Made by a program: the position numbers and the translations under genes | The notes under the pieces: generated by a model | Seen by the model: the letters and a program-made list of their open reading frames with translations, nothing else | What the model was told of the DNA's origin: nothing | Databases searched by the model: none | Source: a virus | Reading direction: 5' to 3' (one strand) | DNA length: 19,147 bases | Virus genome (UHGV): UHGV-0126495 | Part shown: positions 2,932 through 19,098 of the stretch, piece after piece | Position numbering within the stretch: the stretch's first letter is position 1 | Layout: every line of letters begins with the position of its first letter

Positions 2932-3175
2932 CGTGAATCCTTAGTCCTTTTCGGAACTATTATTAAAAAATATTGTCACTGCGGCCTAAATATACATCTA
3001 ATCGGTATGGCTATTTCAAGATATGGAGTTTATTTAATGGTTCAAAGTGTGATCAAGATCTCGTTTATGCGTACTGGTAATTATTGATTGACGATGTTTT
3101 TGTAATGAGAGATGCGTTTCTGAAATGCAATGAAAAGTTATTGTTTTTGTATTTTATAATGTAAATTTTTTGCGT
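2932..3175 (-). promoter_or_regulatory. AT-rich porin upstream region with candidate sigma70 promoter and OmpR-box-like motifs
   Basis: Read on the minus strand: TTGAAA (plus coords 3014-3019), about 17 bp, then TGTATATTT, followed by a roughly 60-70 nt leader. Further upstream TTTACATTATAAAATAC and GAAACGCATCT resemble OmpR-binding boxes of ompC/ompF. Confidence 0.35.
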
Positions 3176-3180
3176 GCTGG

Positions 3181-3194
3181 TTTACGTACGTAAA
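3181..3194. promoter_or_regulatory. perfect 14-bp palindrome TTTACGTACGTAAA (candidate operator)
   Basis: Exact palindrome read directly; overlaps a possible -35 (TTTACG) with TATGAT at 3203-3208 sixteen bp downstream, upstream of the 3265 ORF. Confidence 0.3.
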
Positions 3195-3264
3195 AATTTA
3201 AATATGATGTTAAGAGTGGTCACTTTGCCACACAGCTTAAACCAGCCGCCAAACGGGGTTTTTT

Positions 3265-4939: not shown

Positions 4940-5015
<76 letters not shown>

Positions 5016-5018
5016 TAT

Positions 5019-5093
<75 letters not shown>

Positions 5094-5526: not shown

Positions 5527-5803
5527 TGGCAATGCCATGTAAGTCAGCGATGAATATGGCGCAAAAAAAGCGCGGCTGTCGGATTAACGCCGCGGGACAA
5601 AGTCCGTGAAGAAGAATAAGTATCGGTCTCCTTCCGGAGACGAGTTGATATTACTAAGCTTTAAAAATGGTTTAAATCCTCAGATTGACCTTAATTTCCG
5701 GTAAGTCTTATTTCATTTTCTCCGCGCTACCTCCAGCGCACATCACATCAGGTAACGCCACACAAAAGGCATCTGCGGGTGCCTTTGACGGGTGTTTTTT
5801 TAC

Positions 5804-5829
5804 GGGCCGCTGGTGGCCCTTTTTTATTT
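5804..5829 (+). terminator. intrinsic terminator immediately upstream of the lysis cassette
   Basis: GGGCC-gctggt-GGCCC hairpin followed by TTTTTTATTT; ends about 15 nt before the AGGAGA ribosome-binding site of the 5845 ORF. Confidence 0.6.
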
Positions 5830-5844
5830 ACAGGAGAAAAAAGT

Positions 5845-6237
5845 ATGTCTGAACCCTTGTCCGGTTCCGGCACGGCTGCGGCGCTCGGCGGGGCGACGGT
5901 ATTCGGGCTGTTTACCGGAACGGATTTCGGGATTGTGTTTGGTGCGTTCGCCGGGGCGTTATTTGTGGCAACGATGCCGCAGGCGCTTTCAGCCTGGCGT
6001 GTGGTGGCGCATTTTCTTGTGTCGTTCATTATCGGCGTGCTGGGCGCAGAGGTTCTGGCGTCCTGGCTGGTAAAGCATACAGGGTTTGACGGTGCACCTG
6101 TTGACGCATTGTGTGCAGTACTGGTGTCAGTGGTGTCGGTGAAGATTCTGTCGTTCATCCACCAGCAGGATATCGCATCACTGGTGTCCGGTCTGTTCTC
6201 CCGCCTGCGGGGCGGAGGAGGCGGCAATGTTAAGTAA
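5845..6237 (+). CDS. putative holin (multi-TM small membrane protein, 131 aa)
   Basis: ATG at 5845 preceded by AGGAGA (5832-5837); the longer listed start at 5779 would read through the terminator. Three to four hydrophobic helices and a charged Gly-rich C-tail; first gene of a lysis-type cluster ending in an endolysin. Confidence 0.55.
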   Translation: MSEPLSGSGTAAALGGATVFGLFTGTDFGIVFGAFAGALFVATMPQALSAWRVVAHFLVSFIIGVLGAEVLASWLVKHTGFDGAPVDALCAVLVSVVSVKILSFIHQQDIASLVSGLFSRLRGGGGGNVK

Positions 6238-6502
6238 CCTTCCCGGAGTGCTGAATGTGGCGTTATGTACGGTTATCGTGCTGACGCTCTTTTTTTATCG
6301 TCGTCGTGACTCCAGACACAAACCGCTGATGTCATGGCTGGCCTGGCTGCTGATGCTGCTTTATGGCTTTGCTCCACTCAGCTATCTGTGTGGTCGCCCG
6401 TTAGCAACGGGCTGGCTGGAAGTGTTTTTTAATCTGCTGTTCTGCGTGTTGGTGATACGCGCACGCGGGAACGTCACAAAAATCTTTCCATTGTTGAGGT
6501 GA
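6227..6502 (+). CDS. small three-TM membrane protein (second lysis-cassette component; holin/antiholin-like)
   Basis: ATG at 6227 preceded by GGAGGAGG; overlaps the 3' end of the previous ORF by 11 nt and ends at the endolysin start. Three hydrophobic segments. Confidence 0.5.
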   Translation: MLSNLPGVLNVALCTVIVLTLFFYRRRDSRHKPLMSWLAWLLMLLYGFAPLSYLCGRPLATGWLEVFFNLLFCVLVIRARGNVTKIFPLLR

Positions 6503-6504
6503 AT

Positions 6505-6882
6505 ATGCCGGGTAAATTCAGATTCAGCCGTCGGAGCGAGAAAAATCTGGAGGGCGTCAAACCACAACTGGTTGCTGTCGTTCGCCGTGCCCTTGAGCTG
6601 ACGGAAGTTGATTTCGGTATTACGGAAGGCCTGCGCAGTAAGTATCGCCAGAAACAGCTGGTCGCGGAAGGGAAAAGCCAGACCATGAACAGCCGCCACC
6701 TGACAGGTGATGCGGTGGATGTTGTGGCCTACATTGGCAGCCAGGTGTCATGGGACTGGCCTCTGTACGAGAAAATAGCGCAGGCATTTAAGCAGGCTGC
6801 CGCAGAGCTGGGAACTGCCATCGAATGGGGCGGTGAGTGGCGGTCGTTAAAGGACGGGCCTCACTTTCAGCTGAAACGATAA
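6505..6882 (+). CDS. endolysin, peptidase M15 family (L-alanyl-D-glutamate endopeptidase type)
   Basis: ATG at 6505 preceded by GAGGTGA; the listed GTG start is 6499. Motifs SRHLTGDAVD and DGPHFQL match the zinc-binding signature of M15 peptidases such as phage T5 endolysin. About 125 aa, no signal peptide. Confidence 0.85.
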   Translation: MPGKFRFSRRSEKNLEGVKPQLVAVVRRALELTEVDFGITEGLRSKYRQKQLVAEGKSQTMNSRHLTGDAVDVVAYIGSQVSWDWPLYEKIAQAFKQAAAELGTAIEWGGEWRSLKDGPHFQLKR

Positions 6883-7742: not shown

Positions 7743-8093
7743 ATGCCATCACGAATCCCACGTGCCTGCCGTAAGCGTGGATGCGCAGGTACAACCACAG
7801 ACAATTCTGGTTACTGCGATAAACATCGTGGTGAAGGATGGGCACAGCATCAGCGCGGACTGAGCCGCCACCAGCGTGGATATGGCTCGAAATGGGATGC
7901 CATACGGGTGCGCATACTGAAGCGTGATAATCATCTGTGTCAGAACTGCCTGCGCAATGGGATAGCCGTTGAAGCCAGAACTGTGGACCACATCATTCCG
8001 AAAGCTCATGGTGGCACGGATGCAGACAGTAACCTGCAGAGTCTGTGCTGGCCCTGCCATAAAGCAAAAACTGCGCGCGAACGTATCAACTGA
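7743..8093 (+). CDS. HNH endonuclease (packaging-associated)
   Basis: 116-aa ORF with Cys pairs (CRKRGC...YCDKH; CQNC...CWPCH) and H-N-H residues (DHIIPKAHGG...N); located just upstream of the terminase genes as in HK97-like phages. Confidence 0.88.
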   Translation: MPSRIPRACRKRGCAGTTTDNSGYCDKHRGEGWAQHQRGLSRHQRGYGSKWDAIRVRILKRDNHLCQNCLRNGIAVEARTVDHIIPKAHGGTDADSNLQSLCWPCHKAKTARERIN

Positions 8094-8240: not shown

Positions 8241-8723
8241 ATGTCTGGACCCCCGAAAACCCCGCCACGCCTGCATTTGATACGAGGTAACCCCTCAAAG
8301 CGGCCAGTTAAAGACCCCAAAAAAACCGCTAAAAAGGATGAAAAAGGTCTCCCTAAAATTCCGCAACATTTAGGGGCGCAGGGGAAGTACTGGTTCAGGC
8401 GAATGGCGGAAGAGCTGAATGCGGAAGGGATCATTTCTCAGCTTGATGCGCGTGCACTCGAGTTACTGGTGGAAGCCTACATCGAATACCGGCATCACTG
8501 CGAAACACTCGATGTTGAGGGGTATACCTACCGCACGGAAACGCAGAATGGCGATGTGATGATCAAGGCACATCCGGCTGCGGCGATGAAAGCGGATGCC
8601 TGGAAGCGGATTCGGGCGATGCTTGCAGAGTTTGGTATGTCACCGGCAAGCCGGGCGAAAGTAAATATCGCCGGACCGGATGATGTTGATCCGCTGGCAG
8701 AGCTTTTAAAAGCGAGAGACTGA
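8241..8723 (+). CDS. terminase small subunit (P27-family type)
   Basis: 160-aa ORF directly upstream of and overlapping TerL (ATGA at 8723); basic N-terminus; resembles P27-family small terminase subunits from memory. Confidence 0.8.
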   Translation: MSGPPKTPPRLHLIRGNPSKRPVKDPKKTAKKDEKGLPKIPQHLGAQGKYWFRRMAEELNAEGIISQLDARALELLVEAYIEYRHHCETLDVEGYTYRTETQNGDVMIKAHPAAAMKADAWKRIRAMLAEFGMSPASRAKVNIAGPDDVDPLAELLKARD

Positions 8724-10480
8724 TGGCAAAAGTGGCTGACGGGATCCGCTACGCCGAACGTGTTGTTGCAGGAGAAATTGTTGCTGGCGAATTTGTCCGT
8801 CTGGCCTGCCAGCGTTTTCTTGATGATCTGAAGTACGGCGAAGAGCGGGGGATTTATTTCAGTGAACCCCGTGCGCAGCACATCCTGAATTTCTATAAAT
8901 TTGTGCCCCATGTGAAAGGGGCGCTGGCAGGCCAGCCCATTGAGTTGATGGACTGGCATGTTTTTATCCTCATTAATATTTTTGGTTTTGTCATTCCGCT
9001 GGTGAATGAAGAGACCGGGGAAGTTGTCATGCGCAGCGATGGCAGCGGACGCCCGGTGATGGTGCGCCGGTTCCGGACAGCGTACAACGAAGTCGCCCGT
9101 AAAAACGCAAAATCAACCCTGTCATCGGGTATCGGTCTGTATATGACGGGGGCAGATGGTGAAGGCGGGGCTGAGGTGTATTCAGCCGCAACCACGCGTG
9201 ACCAGGCCAGAATCGTGTTTGAAGACGCCAAAAATATGGTCAGAAAAGCCCGGTCGACACTCGGGCGATTGTTTGATTTCAACAAGCTGGCGATTTACCA
9301 GGAGCAGAGCGCATCAAAATTTGAACCGCTTTCCTCGGATGCAAACAACCTGGACGGTCTGAACATCCACTGCGCCATTATTGATGAGCTGCATGCACAT
9401 AAAACCCGCGACGTGTGGGACGTTCTGGAAACGGCAACCGGTGCTCGTCTGCAGTCCCTGTTATTTGGTATCACCACGGCTGGCTTTAACAAGGAAGGGA
9501 TTTGTTACGAGCAACGCGATTACGCCATCAAGGTATTGCGTGGCTATAACAGCGACGTGGAGGGCGCGGTAAAAGACGACTCCTACTTTGCGATTATTTA
9601 CACCCTCGATGAGGGAGATGATCCGTTTGATGAAACGGTCTGGCAGAAAGCGAATCCCGGACTGGGCATCTGTAAACGCTGGGATGATCTGCGTCGTCTG
9701 GCGAAAAAAGCGAAAGAACAGGTCTCTGCGCGGGTGAATTTTTTTACCAAACACATGAATGTGTGGGTAACAGCAGAGTCTGCCTGGATGGACATGATTA
9801 AGTGGGAGAAGTGCGAATACATTGCCCCACGACATGAGCTGAAAACGTATCCCATGTGGGTCGGCGTTGACCTTGCTCATAAGATTGATATCTGTGCGGC
9901 GGCAAAACTCTGGCGAACGGATAACGGGCATGTTCATGCCGATTTTAAATTCTGGCTTCCGGAAGGACGGCTGGAACGATGCTCGCGGCAGCAGGCAGAA
10001 CTTTACCGGAAGTGGGCGGAGATGGATAAGCTCATCCTGACGGATGGTGATGTTATCGATCATGCTCAGATAAAAAGTGACTTACTGGAATGGATTGGCG
10101 GTGAAAACCTCAGGGAACTGGGATTTGACCCGTGGAGTGCAATGCAGTTCAGTCTGGCTCTGGCTGAAGAAGGGATATCGCTGGTGGAAGTTCCGCAGAC
10201 GGTCCGCAATCTGTCAGAGGCCATGAAGGAAACGGAATCACTGGTCTATGCCGGGCGTTTCCATCACAGCAATCACCCGGTCATGAACTGGATGATGTCT
10301 AACGTTACGGTAAAACCGGACAAAAACGACAATATCTTCCCGAACAAATCCACGCCTGAAGCCAAAATCGACGGCCCTGTTGCGATGTTTACAGCAATGA
10401 GCCGGATGCTGGTCAATGGCGGTGAACCGGAGCCGGATCTGTCTGAACACCTGATTAGTGTTGGTATCCGCTCGCTTTAA
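8723..10480 (+). CDS. terminase large subunit
   Basis: 585-aa ORF with size, position and sequence character of a large terminase (N-terminal ATPase, C-terminal nuclease); coupled to TerS. Confidence 0.93.
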
Positions 10481-10491
10481 CCGAGGGCATT

Positions 10492-10674
10492 ATGTTTCTG
10501 ATAATTCTCACGCCACTGGTGGGCGTGCTGGGGGCGCTTTTGCTGTCGTATGGCACATGGATGATTTATCCCCCGGCAGGTTTTGTTGTTGCCGGGGCGC
10601 TGTGTCTGTGCTGGTCGTGGCTGGTTGCGCGTTATCTCGATCGCGGTCACCGGGTCGCCTCCGGAGGTGAGTAA
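10492..10674 (+). CDS. hypothetical small two-TM membrane protein (60 aa)
   Basis: ATG at 10492 with GAGGG upstream; its TAA overlaps the portal ATG (TAATG at 10672-10676) and its 3' end carries the portal ribosome-binding site GGAGGTGA. Two hydrophobic helices. Confidence 0.45.
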
Positions 10675-11915
10675 TGTTTTTCCAGGGGCTTTTTCAACGC
10701 AAAAATAACACCCCCGTCACAACGCCCGGGATGCTTGCGGAAGAACTTGGATTGTCATACGACACCTATACCGGAAAGCGGATCAGCAGCCAGCGGGCCA
10801 TGCGGCTGACGGCGGTCTATTCCTGCGTCAGGGTGCTGGCGGAGTCTGTTGGTATGCTGCCCTGCAGCCTCTACAAAATCACCGGTACCCTTAAAACACG
10901 GGCGGTGGATGAACGACTGCATAAGCTGGTTTCGGCAAAACCTAATGGCTACATGACGCCGCAGGAATTCTGGGAGCTGGTCATTGTCTGCCTGTGTCTG
11001 CGGGGTAATTTTTACGCCTACAAGGTAAAGGCACTGGGGGAAGTGGTGGAGCTTCTTCCGATAGATCCGGGCTGTGTGGAACCGAAGCTGAACAGCCAGT
11101 GGCAGCCGGTTTATCAGGTGACGTTTCCGGATGGTTCCGTGGATGTGCTGACCCAGAATGAAATCTGGCATGTGCGCACTCTGACGCTGGATGGACTTGT
11201 CGGGCTGAATCCCATTGCGTATGCGCGTGAGGCCATTTCACTGGCAGCGGCAACTGAGGAGCACGGCGCCAGGTTGTTTGGTAACGGCGCTGTGACATCC
11301 GGTGTGTTGCGTACGGATCAACAACTTTCTGATCAGGCTTATGCGCGTATCAAAAAGGACTTTGAGGAACGGCATGTCGGGCTGGGAAATTCTCATCGTC
11401 CGATGATTCTGGAAATGGGGCTGGACTGGAAAACGGTGGCACTGAATGCCGAGGACAGCCAGTTCCTGGAAACCCGCAAGTTTCAGCTGGAAGAAATCTG
11501 TCGCCTGTTCCGCGTACCGCTGCATATGGTGCAGAACACCGATCGCGCCACCTTCAACAATATTGAAGAGCTGGGGCTTGGTTTCATTAACTATTCCCTT
11601 GTGCCGTATCTGACCCGTATTGAACAGCGGATCAATACAGGGCTGGTCAGGGAGAGCAAACAGGGGAGGTTTTACGCCAAATTTAATGCCGGAGCATTGT
11701 TGCGTGGCGACATGAAATCCCGCTTTGAAGCGTATGCCACGGGGATCAACTGGGGGATTTATTCCCCTAATGACTGCCGTGATCTGGAGGATATGAATCC
11801 CCGACCGGGCGGTGATGTGTATCTGACACCGATGAACATGACCACCAGTCCCTCTGCTGGCGATGACAACGGTAAGAAAAAGGAGAGTGGAGATGCAGAC
11901 AAAACAGCGTCTTGA
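10674..11915 (+). CDS. portal protein (HK97 family)
   Basis: 413-aa ORF following the terminase; sequence character of HK97-type portal proteins; acidic, Lys-rich C-terminus. Confidence 0.93.
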   Translation: MFFQGLFQRKNNTPVTTPGMLAEELGLSYDTYTGKRISSQRAMRLTAVYSCVRVLAESVGMLPCSLYKITGTLKTRAVDERLHKLVSAKPNGYMTPQEFWELVIVCLCLRGNFYAYKVKALGEVVELLPIDPGCVEPKLNSQWQPVYQVTFPDGSVDVLTQNEIWHVRTLTLDGLVGLNPIAYAREAISLAAATEEHGARLFGNGAVTSGVLRTDQQLSDQAYARIKKDFEERHVGLGNSHRPMILEMGLDWKTVALNAEDSQFLETRKFQLEEICRLFRVPLHMVQNTDRATFNNIEELGLGFINYSLVPYLTRIEQRINTGLVRESKQGRFYAKFNAGALLRGDMKSRFEAYATGINWGIYSPNDCRDLEDMNPRPGGDVYLTPMNMTTSPSAGDDNGKKKESGDADKTAS

Positions 11916-16770: not shown

Positions 16771-19098
16771 ATGAGTGTGGCGACATTACGTGAACTGATT
16801 ATTAAAATCTCGGCAAATTCCCGGTCATTCCAGTCAGAGATCTCCCGGGCTTCGCGTATGGGGCAGGATTACTACCGTACCATGCAGAACGGAGGCCGAC
16901 AGTCCGCTGCTGCATCCCGTGAAATGCGGCGTGCACTGGCAGAAGTGACGGATCAGATAAATACAGCTAAATCTTCGGCACTGAACATGGCGGGGGCATT
17001 TGCCGGGGCTTTTGCTACCGGTCATCTTATTTCTCTCGCCGATGAGTGGAATTCAGTAAATGCCCGTCTGAAGCAGGCCTCACAGTCCAGTGATGATTTT
17101 CAGTCATCACAGCGTGAATTAATGGCGATCAGCCAGAGAACGGGGACGGCTTTTTCTGATAACGCCAGCCTTTTTGCCCGCTCTGCAGCTTCCATGCGGG
17201 AGTATGGTTACAGTTCTGAGGAGGTACTGAAAGTCACCGAGGCGATCTCCACGGGCCTGAAATTATCCGGTGCCAGTACAGCAGAAGCCAGTTCGGTGAT
17301 CACGCAGTTCAGTCAGGCTCTGGCGCAGGGAGTGCTGCGCGGTGAAGAGTTTAACTCGGTGAATGAGAACGGCGATCGTGTTATTCGTGCTCTGGCTGCG
17401 GGAATGGGAGTTGCCCGTAAGGATCTGAAGGCCATGGCGGATAACGGAAAGTTGACCGCCGATAAGGTTGTTCCTGCACTGATTAGTCAGCTTGGGGCAT
17501 TACGTGATGAATATGCGGCAATGCCTGATACGGTTTCATCCTCTGCAACCAAAGTTGAAAACGCCTTTATGGCTTGGGTTGGTGGTGCGAACGAGGCAAG
17601 CGGAGTGACGAAGACGCTCTCCGGTGTGCTGAATGGTATTGCAGGCAATATTGACACCGTGGCAACCGCTGCCGGTGCTCTGGTTGCCGTCGGGGTAGCC
17701 CGGTATTTTGGCAATATGGCGTCGTCTGCTGGATCTGCAACTGCCGGATTAATTACTGCAGCCAGAAACGAAGTGGCTCTTGCTGAAGCGCAACTTCGGG
17801 GGACACAGATAGCAACCGCCAGGGCGCGTGCGGCGGTTTATCGTGCGCAACAGGCGGTTGTTGCTGCTCGCGGTACCGAAAGGCAGGCCGCAGCAGAAGC
17901 GAAGCTGACAGCTGCCCAGGCGTCACTTACCCGTAATATTGCGGCCAGAACAGCGGCACAGACAACGCTGAATACTGTCACGTCAGTGGGGAGTCGTCTG
18001 TTAAGTGGTGCGCTGGGGTTGGTTGGTGGTGTGCCGGGACTCGTCATGCTGGGGGCGACGGCCTGGTACACGATGTATCAGAATCAGGAGCAGGCCAGAG
18101 AATCTGCACGCCAGTATGCCGCAACAATCGACGAAATTCGCCAGAAAACGTCGGCAATGTCGCTTCCTGAAGCGTCAGATAATGAGGAAAAGACGCGGCA
18201 GGCACTTGATGAGCAAAACAGGTTAATTGACGAGCAGAAAAGTAAGATTAAATCCTTACAGGAAAAAATTGCTGGCTATCAGTATGTGCTGGCAAACCCG
18301 GGCTGGACAACCGATAACGGTTTTATGATTAACCACATGACGTCGGTAAAAACTGTCACAGAAGGGCTTGCAGAAGCAACAAATCAACTGGCAGTTGAAC
18401 AGTCCCGTCTCACACAAATGCAGGGCAAAGCGCAATCCATTCAGGATGTGCTTGCCGGGCTGGAGGAGCGACGGGTGGCGTTGATCCGTCAACAGGTCGC
18501 GGAACAAAACAAAGCGTATCAGTCCCTGTTGATCATGAATGGGCAGCATACCGAGTTTAATCGCCTTCTCGGGCTCGGTAATGAATTACTTCAGCAGCGA
18601 CAGGGGCTGGTGAATGTACCGTTACGGCTACCACAGGCAACCCTGGATGATAAACAGCAGACTGCACTGAATAACAGCGAGCGCGAACTGGCTCTGTCCC
18701 GCCTGAAGGGGGAAGCCCGTGAGCGTGCCCGCTTGGGTTATGCTGCGGATGATCTCGGCTTTGTGGGAGAGGCGTATCAGACAGCCAGACAGAATTATAT
18801 CAATAACTCACTGGATGCCTGGCGAAATAACCAGGCAAATAAACCCAAAGCGCATAAAAAGACCGAAGCGGAAAAAACAGAAGATATTTATAAACGGCTG
18901 ATTAAACAGCAAAAAGAACAAATAGCACTGGCAGGGCAGAATACTGAACTGGCTAAGATGAAATATCAGGTCAGTCAGGGCGAATTATCAACCCTGTCAG
19001 AAGCGCAGAAAAAAACGCTTTTGCAGAATGCAGCACTCATCGACCAGAAAAAGATTCGTGAGCAGCTTGCTGCGTATGAGAGCAGTTTGGCGGACTGA
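16771..19098 (+). CDS. tail tape measure protein
   Basis: 775-aa ORF downstream of the chaperone pair; long Ala/Gln-rich helical stretches and Gly-rich hydrophobic segments typical of tape measure proteins. Confidence 0.88.
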   Translation: MSVATLRELIIKISANSRSFQSEISRASRMGQDYYRTMQNGGRQSAAASREMRRALAEVTDQINTAKSSALNMAGAFAGAFATGHLISLADEWNSVNARLKQASQSSDDFQSSQRELMAISQRTGTAFSDNASLFARSAASMREYGYSSEEVLKVTEAISTGLKLSGASTAEASSVITQFSQALAQGVLRGEEFNSVNENGDRVIRALAAGMGVARKDLKAMADNGKLTADKVVPALISQLGALRDEYAAMPDTVSSSATKVENAFMAWVGGANEASGVTKTLSGVLNGIAGNIDTVATAAGALVAVGVARYFGNMASSAGSATAGLITAARNEVALAEAQLRGTQIATARARAAVYRAQQAVVAARGTERQAAAEAKLTAAQASLTRNIAARTAAQTTLNTVTSVGSRLLSGALGLVGGVPGLVMLGATAWYTMYQNQEQARESARQYAATIDEIRQKTSAMSLPEASDNEEKTRQALDEQNRLIDEQKSKIKSLQEKIAGYQYVLANPGWTTDNGFMINHMTSVKTVTEGLAEATNQLAVEQSRLTQMQGKAQSIQDVLAGLEERRVALIRQQVAEQNKAYQSLLIMNGQHTEFNRLLGLGNELLQQRQGLVNVPLRLPQATLDDKQQTALNNSERELALSRLKGEARERARLGYAADDLGFVGEAYQTARQNYINNSLDAWRNNQANKPKAHKKTEAEKTEDIYKRLIKQQKEQIALAGQNTELAKMKYQVSQGELSTLSEAQKKTLLQNAALIDQKKIREQLAAYESSLAD

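Follow-up and report, generated by a model that had tools for sequence, protein, structure and literature searches.

What role could a small, strongly hydrophobic gene have between the large terminase subunit (TerL) and portal genes of a lambdoid phage? The question is raised by the virus genome UHGV-0126495, a stretch of 19,147 nucleotides that is referred to here as the window, in which a 60-codon open reading frame (ORF) occupies positions 10492-10674 on the plus strand. An earlier note, drawn up from the letters alone, described this ORF as encoding a two-transmembrane (two-TM) protein, regarded a membrane protein within a head operon as unusual, and proposed that it might be either a moron or a spurious ORF in the portal leader. 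The analysis reported here points, with considerable confidence, elsewhere: the ORF is very probably a real gene of the YmfR family that belongs to the late head and packaging operon, encodes an inner-membrane hairpin, and is not a moron but an accessory gene of the HK97-type portal module that is old and has been inherited vertically.

The anatomy of the gap between TerL and portal is as the earlier note had it, and it is compact. The upstream neighbor, TerL (8723-10480, +; PF03354, E 1.9e-27; PF20441, E 3.5e-51; phrog_9, E 1.2e-189), ends in a TAA at 10478-10480, and a Shine-Dalgarno (SD) sequence, GAGGG, follows at 10483-10487 (+), 2 nt past that stop and 4 nt ahead of the ATG at 10492, which bears out the claim that the small ORF has a ribosome-binding site of its own. 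Translation gives 60 residues and ends at a TAA (10672-10674), the final base of which is shared with the portal ATG (10674-10676) in the TAATG stop-start overlap (10672-10676, +) that had also been reported. From the sequence and from a comparison of this junction across loci, the SD sequence of the portal gene (GGAGG, 10663-10667, +) is placed inside codons 58-59 of the small ORF, and the HK97-type portal gene itself extends from 10674 to 11915 (+; PF04860, E 8.6e-107). These spacings are widely shared. In the 126 loci that made up the set when spacing was compared, a gap of 9-12 nt separates the TerL stop from the start of the small ORF in almost every Enterobacterales locus with a paired TerL ORF, and most loci with an identified portal ORF show a -1 or -4 overlap with the portal gene. 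Ribosomes finishing TerL can reinitiate 11 nt downstream at the SD sequence of the small ORF. The portal SD sequence within its last codons, together with the overlap of its stop with the portal start, is an architecture that couples translation of the portal gene to that of its small neighbor.

The manner in which the ORF varies is that expected of a protein. The ratio of nonsynonymous to synonymous substitution (dN/dS), computed by the Nei-Gojobori method (NG86) over 45 distinct 183-nt alleles, is 0.38 overall in the ymfR frame, 0.25 for codons 1-50 and 0.92 for codons 51-60, as against 0.52-1.51 in the other five frames; the variable sites at codon positions 1, 2 and 3 number 32, 22 and 48, respectively. 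At deep divergence, the 12-residue core YGAWxIYPPAGF has changed at 6-10 of its 12 third positions but has undergone only 1-3 changes at first or second positions, and the compared loci in which the motif persists over scrambled third positions include those of Reyranella, Shinella, Sphingopyxis, Rhizomicrobium, Micromonospora and Ruminococcaceae. Judged by these substitution patterns, the small ORF is a genuine protein-coding gene, with purifying selection confined to its frame. The conservation and codon-substitution analysis that the earlier note had recommended has thus been run, and finds the ORF conserved in more than 100 related loci, with purifying selection in this frame only. The suggestion that the ORF is spurious does not survive the contrast among frames, nor the retention of the motif across phyla in the face of synonymous turnover. 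Two overlapping ORFs, at 10458-10670 (+) and 10477-10650 (-), were considered as genes in their own right and rejected, the dN/dS of their frames being 1.50 and 1.17. Damaged copies of ymfR, either frameshifted or internally deleted, are also on record, at 3001-3216 of locus L021 (Shigella flexneri CP182557) and in protein clusters P0085, P0094, P0119, P0123 and P0132, the frameshifted copies being few and including several E. coli clusters; L021 and P0132 have the same frameshifted tail, which ends in apparent portal-gene codons read out of frame.

The family to which the gene belongs is already known and catalogued (YmfR, IPR020297, phrog_502) and is functionally uncharacterised. The window protein is identical at 45 of 60 positions (75%; BLASTP, E 1e-24) to YmfR of the e14 prophage of Escherichia coli K-12 (b1150, IPR020297) and matches phrog_502, “membrane protein”, over residues 1-54 (E 7.5e-25); phrog_502 and phrog_7105 are its only PHROG matches. 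The likeness to e14 extends to the length of the protein (60 residues), its two-TM hairpin, the stop-start overlap and the slot, with ymfR of K-12 MG1655 residing between aaaE, a terminase pseudogene, and beeE, a portal fragment. The differences are allelic only, the window allele being distinguished by TPL, SYGTWM and a GHRVASGGE tail. Searches of Pfam, NCBIfam, PDB sequences and PADLOC gave no significant match, although weak DUF1206 hits (best E 2e-3) appear in 14 of 68 family members. Annotation of the family is uneven. The exact window protein can be found on 146 public contigs, where it is named, for instance, “Prophage protein” or “hypothetical protein”, and RefSeq, in which the K-12 protein is entered as “IPR020297 domain-containing protein YmfR”, labels relatives that are about 82% identical in DNA as “ymfR: protein YmfR” but the window allele as “hypothetical protein”. 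The gene is unannotated in NC_022749 (SfIV) and NC_005069 (PY54); in ST64B the match overlaps annotated sb3 and sb4, and in phiKO2 the features beneath it are “Gp3” and the large terminase subunit. In GenBank records ON470580, ON470603, ON470584 and PQ793804 it is called “head-tail joining protein W”, a label that is a recurring positional misannotation.

Members of the family are both numerous and dispersed. Homologues are present in 1387 of 5426 complete E. coli genomes and in the named phages phiP27, SfI, SfII, SfIV, ST64B, PY54, phiKO2 and Azospirillum phage Cd, as well as in phages of Yersinia and Klebsiella. When 1.84 billion representative proteins were searched with the family profile, 312 clusters (at 50% identity) were recovered with E<=1e-3. 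A membrane protein at this point in the head operon is therefore not the rarity that it had been taken for. Among the best 150 of these 312 clusters, the median length is 61 residues, and fusion to a soluble domain occurs in none. When one genome per species was scanned, 43 loci were obtained, the hosts of which comprise Enterobacterales, Burkholderiaceae, Massilia, Reyranella, Rhizobium, Shinella, Sphingopyxis, Rhizomicrobium, Micromonospora and Ruminococcaceae, and prophages of gamma-, beta- and alpha-proteobacteria, Actinobacteria and Firmicutes share the motif YGAW-x-IYPPAGF. Two records filed under Gram-positive names contain a ymfR-portal segment of the enterobacterial SfII type (protein identity to the window 73-75%), namely a “Bacillota bacterium” metagenome-assembled genome (locus L010, JAEWTL010000102) and “Enterococcus phage Efm 3-10” (OR844959, 1764 bp); here the attribution probably reflects contamination or mislabelling rather than true host range. 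More distant relatives may reach beyond the motif. Escherichia phage Evi has, in the same TerL-portal slot, a 53-aa ORF with two hydrophobic helices, a basic C-terminal end and an overlap with the portal start, which is a probable YmfR homologue on the basis of profile alignment (hhalign probability 86%, E 5e-6). It differs in having AGLPAS in place of YPPAG, and the Evi portal is only 28% identical to that of the window.

Its inheritance identifies the gene as part of the portal module. In 41 of the 43 genome loci there is a match to a portal profile hidden Markov model downstream of the ORF, and in those 41 the match lies at the ORF stop or no more than 40 nt past it, except in L035 (86 nt) and L023 (215 nt); in L042, an exception to the 41, an S78 prohead protease is located just 3′ of the ORF. 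Pfam searches confirm the order TerL-ORF-portal in the Ruminococcaceae, Reyranella and Burkholderiaceae loci, and a portal plus S78 protease in Micromonospora. In its identity, YmfR follows the portal more closely (Spearman 0.85) than it does TerL (0.71). Where portal identity is in the class of 84-87.5%, YmfR holds steady at 73-80%, whereas TerL identity takes one of two values, 36-38% or 99-100%. The co-inheritance with portal persists down to portal identities of 25-40%. A mosaic joint can be located within the last TerL codons, at 10422-10462, where megablast with a 701-nt query across the small ORF separates one group of sequences that matches query positions 1-223 only from another that matches 263-701 only; that is, some phages share only the DNA upstream of the joint and others only the DNA downstream, which contains ymfR and the portal gene. 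Two unrelated TerL lineages, about 36% identical, have been spliced to the same ymfR-portal module at this position. As far as sequence comparison can tell, ymfR is tied genetically to the portal gene rather than to the terminase.

To free the association from the bias of retrieval by motif, it was gauged in a second sample that was assembled on portal similarity alone, consisting of 80 viral contigs chosen with a 7-sequence portal alignment, of which 78 were assessable. A two-TM ORF lies directly 5′ of the portal gene in 68 of these 78 loci. Every sampled locus with a portal at least 72% identical carries it, and the ORF is absent from 10 of the 21 loci with portals 48-70% identical, in which TerL and portal nearly abut. 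On a neighbor-joining tree of the portals, the ten loci without it are interspersed among carriers at five or more separate points. This scattered distribution argues for repeated loss of an old gene rather than recent gain, and it is these losses, at least five among relatives of the portal, that mark ymfR as an accessory gene. Neither the near-invariant YGAWxIYPPAGF turn shared across phyla, nor the linkage to portal rather than terminase, nor the repeated loss was found in the literature searched.

The product of the gene is predicted to be almost entirely a membrane structure. The earlier assignment of two TM segments agrees with the strong hydrophobicity of the protein (grand average of hydropathy, or GRAVY, 1.06) and with an AlphaFold2 model built from a 68-sequence alignment, in which helices at residues 2-25 and 27-57 leave almost no soluble part (mean predicted local distance difference test score, or pLDDT, 89). 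The first helix, the putative TM1 (residues 2-25; 10495-10566, +; block-mean pLDDT 90-92), displays a stripe of small residues at G11, G14 and G21. The family signature (residues 20-31; 10549-10584, +) would take in a tight turn at the outer leaflet, with the last residues of TM1 before it and the first of TM2 after it, and TM2 itself (about residues 27-49; 10570-10638, +) presents G30, A34, G35, C38 and S42 before an A-R anchor at its end. What follows is a short tail of 11 residues (10639-10671, +), probably cytoplasmic, that evolves rapidly apart from a terminal GG-x. All of the charged residues lie after the second helix, and the positive-inside rule would therefore place both termini in the cytoplasm, with the YPPAG turn lying at the outer leaflet, so that the 60-residue product would reside in the inner membrane as an N-in/C-in helical hairpin, with stripes of Gly, Ala and Ser on both helices and the tight Y-P-P-A-G turn joining them.

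Conservation is concentrated in the membrane-embedded portion. Across 142 family representatives, and in the numbering of the window protein, the family profile has G14 at 96%, G21 at 99%, P28 at 89%, G30 at 90% and G35 at 100%, with lesser values for W23 (78%), Y26 (74%) and the signature A (79%); G35 shows no variation in 136 representatives, and at the position of R47 an R or K is present in 76%. The C-terminal GG[E/K/D/N] might appear to be a further conserved element, but it coincides with GGAGG or GGGGG in many relatives and is accordingly the portal SD sequence read in frame rather than a feature of the protein. In clusters P0154, P0166 and P0248 the hairpin has been duplicated in tandem, giving chains of 102-122 aa with two YGAW..PAG units each, which suggests a functional unit of two or more adjacent hairpins. 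In one divergent branch of the family (L185, L188 and L194-L200), G(E/D)(A/P)(V/L)AL has replaced the YPPAG turn, but both helices and the slot are retained, as is a C-terminal RGG(R/S); the motif is therefore specific to a clade and the architecture is general. A Foldseek search of the AlphaFold2 model against BFVD gave no match at E<=1e-3, and as all of the hits were uncharacterised small helical proteins, the search is uninformative for a two-helix hairpin.

Signals in the DNA are consistent with a gene transcribed as part of its operon. A promoter scan returned one 9/12 match, compared with 0.9 expected in shuffled sequences, and its -10 box lies inside the ORF, after the ATG; an internal promoter was rejected, the single match being the shuffled expectation. 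The “putative rho-independent terminator” annotated within the ORF in SfII was likewise rejected, since the equivalent hairpin in the window (10515-10550) has a z of +0.85 relative to shuffles, and an Rfam search found no match in the region of the small ORF. The GC content at third codon positions is 0.62 in the small ORF, 0.61 in the portal gene and 0.57 in TerL; the higher overall GC content of the ORF (0.585) fits a composition rich in Gly, Ala, Leu and Pro. The absence of promoter and terminator signals, the portal-like third positions, the fixed spacing and the inheritance with portal together disfavor the earlier suggestion of a moron. In K-12, the level of ymfR mRNA increases together with that of the other e14 genes under SOS-inducing conditions (log2 fold change 4.5; PMC10012262), which is unlike the behavior of a gene expressed in the lysogen.

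What the hairpin does can be approached from these same properties. Repeated loss means that ymfR is dispensable for making heads, and a conserved surface that is almost wholly embedded in the membrane implies that the protein most likely acts by helix-helix packing within it. The partner in such packing could be the hairpin itself or another membrane protein, and the natural tandem duplications lend support to self-association. The leading guess, and a tentative one, is that YmfR acts late and at the membrane to assist head assembly or DNA packaging. A role of this kind is favored by the fidelity of the gene to the portal across phyla, irrespective of tail type, host and TerL lineage. There is also a conceptual precedent in T4, whose portal initiation at the inner membrane requires the viral chaperone gp40 (PMC9958956), which is, as YmfR might be, a phage-encoded inner-membrane factor linked to the portal initiator, gp20 (PMC9958956). 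The likeness goes no further: no homology is expected, and the YmfR hairpin is essentially devoid of a soluble domain with which to hold a portal. Gene 40 of T4 is not known to lie next to gene 20. Conceivably, though this is doubtful, the YmfR hairpin is an ancient and unrecognised membrane component of HK97-type head and packaging modules that is translated together with the portal and sites or nucleates portal, prohead or packaging complexes in both Gram-negative and Gram-positive hosts; if so, membrane-associated head initiation, known from T4, would become a widespread feature.

Several observations weigh against the interpretation of ymfR as an old helper of the portal module. The cytoplasmic tail amounts to about 10 residues and is near neutrality (dN/dS 0.92), so there is little surface with which to touch a portal in the cytoplasm, and specific binding of the hairpin to cytoplasmic portal seems unlikely. 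A comparison of portal N-termini between carriers and non-carriers revealed no carrier-specific feature. Relatives with portals 58-70% identical, and HK97 itself, manage without ymfR, and its repeated loss likewise tells against the proposed role. The constant position could stem from nothing more than vertical descent of a rigid gene order, coupled with a lack of intergenic DNA before the portal gene. As the distant loci were retrieved by means of the motif, its conservation there is partly a matter of ascertainment; the adjoining portal was no part of that search. Finally, ymfR is a named K-12 gene carried by about a quarter of complete E. coli genomes, yet full-text searches of the literature found no functional study of it and no experiment on any member of the family.

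Among other functions that a late two-TM protein might have, lysis comes readily to mind: an oligomer of the hairpin could permeabilise or depolarise the inner membrane late in infection, or tune the true holin. Class II holins and pinholins, such as S21 of phage 21, are like YmfR in being small, late proteins with two helices in the N-in/C-in arrangement predicted for it, glycine-rich faces and a basic residue after TM2, and the YmfR hairpin shares with them its size, late expression, topology, the basic stretch following TM2 and the glycine-rich faces on both helices; the oligomers suggested by tandem duplication and the dispensability of the gene would suit this function as well. The window, however, already has a lysis cassette about 4 kb upstream, comprising holin-family genes of phrog_198 (5779-6237, +) and phrog_217 (6227-6502, +), which overlap at 6227-6237, followed by an endolysin (6499-6882, +), and about 3.6 kb, with the HNH endonuclease, small terminase subunit (TerS) and TerL genes, separates this cassette (5779-6882) from the small ORF. 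In no locus examined does the ORF lie beside lysis genes; it is always beside the portal. None of 68 members matches a Pfam holin family at E<=0.1, the window protein has no PHROG holin match, and the charged C-terminal segment is minimal and unconstrained. Lysis cassettes exchange rapidly, whereas ymfR, outside the lysis cassette, tracks the portal across phyla, and a function in lysis or its timing is thus given only a small chance. The hairpin could alternatively, if the moron idea of the earlier note is taken as a function, block the entry of DNA from other phages, or neutralise a host membrane protein or a membrane-acting defense effector. In temperate phages, a small inner-membrane protein is often an exclusion factor (HK97 gp15 and T4 Imm, for example), the PHROGs category of the family is “moron, auxiliary metabolic gene and host takeover”, and a dispensable gene whose conserved surface is intramembrane would suit a membrane target. 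This idea, too, is rather improbable. The gene has no promoter-like excess, no terminator and a codon composition like that of its neighbors, and it is induced together with the lytic genes of e14 rather than expressed in the lysogen. PADLOC returned nothing below E 0.06 for six members, and no PHROG exclusion family was matched. Moreover, ymfR is linked to head genes whatever the tail type or host phylum, whereas the specificity of exclusion usually follows tail and ejection proteins, and morons are sporadic, but ymfR is present in every sampled relative at or above the 72% portal threshold and is missing only from some with portals 48-70% identical.

It might also be that the peptide matters little and that translation of the ORF is what counts, either as a coupling device or as a membrane-targeting leader that brings ribosomes, and via the signal recognition particle possibly the mRNA, to the portal start. 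The portal SD sequence within the last codons and the overlap of stop and start are what such a device would require; the tail is unconstrained outside the SD codons, and lineages without the ORF simply have TerL and portal abutting. No specific sequence would be needed for coupling, however, and the 89-100% conservation of G14, G21, P28, G30 and G35, together with the survival of YGAWxIYPPAGF through saturation of synonymous sites, makes this decidedly improbable. A candidate hairpin at 10655-10670 that could sequester the portal SD sequence is no more stable than shuffled sequences (z +0.63) and is found in one clade only, and it was rejected as a general feature. The remaining proposals are that the ORF is spurious or that it encodes a head-tail joining protein of the lambda gpW type. 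In their favor, the ORF is short, lambda has its own small gene, W, in this very slot between terminase gene A and portal gene B, overlapping its neighbors, and several GenBank records apply the name. The earlier note had stated that HK97 and lambda carry no membrane protein here, which is correct as far as it goes, TerL and portal abutting directly in HK97, without an ORF between them, and lambda having no membrane protein; what it omitted is that lambda has a small soluble gene product at this position. This product, gpW, is an unrelated, hydrophilic head-tail adaptor, in contrast to the hydrophobic YmfR: hhalign gives a probability of 3%, with only a 4-residue coincidence at PAGF, and none of 68 members has a PF02831 hit. 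The frame-specific selection and cross-phylum conservation dispose of a spurious ORF, and the two proposals, which retain scarcely any probability, are effectively refuted already.

The window as a whole is a lambdoid HK97-type siphovirus prophage, and in the megablast search the 701-nt query is 100% identical to E. coli ETEC1738 (NZ_CP122768). The 5′ portion contains, in order, a DnaB-like helicase, a porin (-), a DNA methyltransferase, two tRNAs, the two holin-family genes, the endolysin and an HNH endonuclease; TerS (8241-8723), TerL, the small ORF, portal, S78 protease and an HK97-fold capsid protein follow, and then further ORFs up to a 775-aa ORF at 16771-19098. The HNH endonuclease gene (7743-8093, +; phrog_144, E 1e-41) lies just 5′ of TerS, an arrangement typical of HK97-like cos packaging modules. 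The overlapping holin-family genes and the endolysin next to them may represent a holin/antiholin pair or a two-component holin. Between the methyltransferase and the lysis region are two phage-borne tRNA genes, tRNA-Thr(TGT) at 4940-5015 (+) and tRNA-Gly(TCC) at 5019-5093 (+). The early region contains, on the opposite strand, a gene for a 365-aa Gram-negative porin (1834-2931, -; PF00267 Porin_1, E 2.5e-155; phrog_410), which has the appearance of a true moron of the lambdoid type, akin to OmpC/NmpC/Lc.

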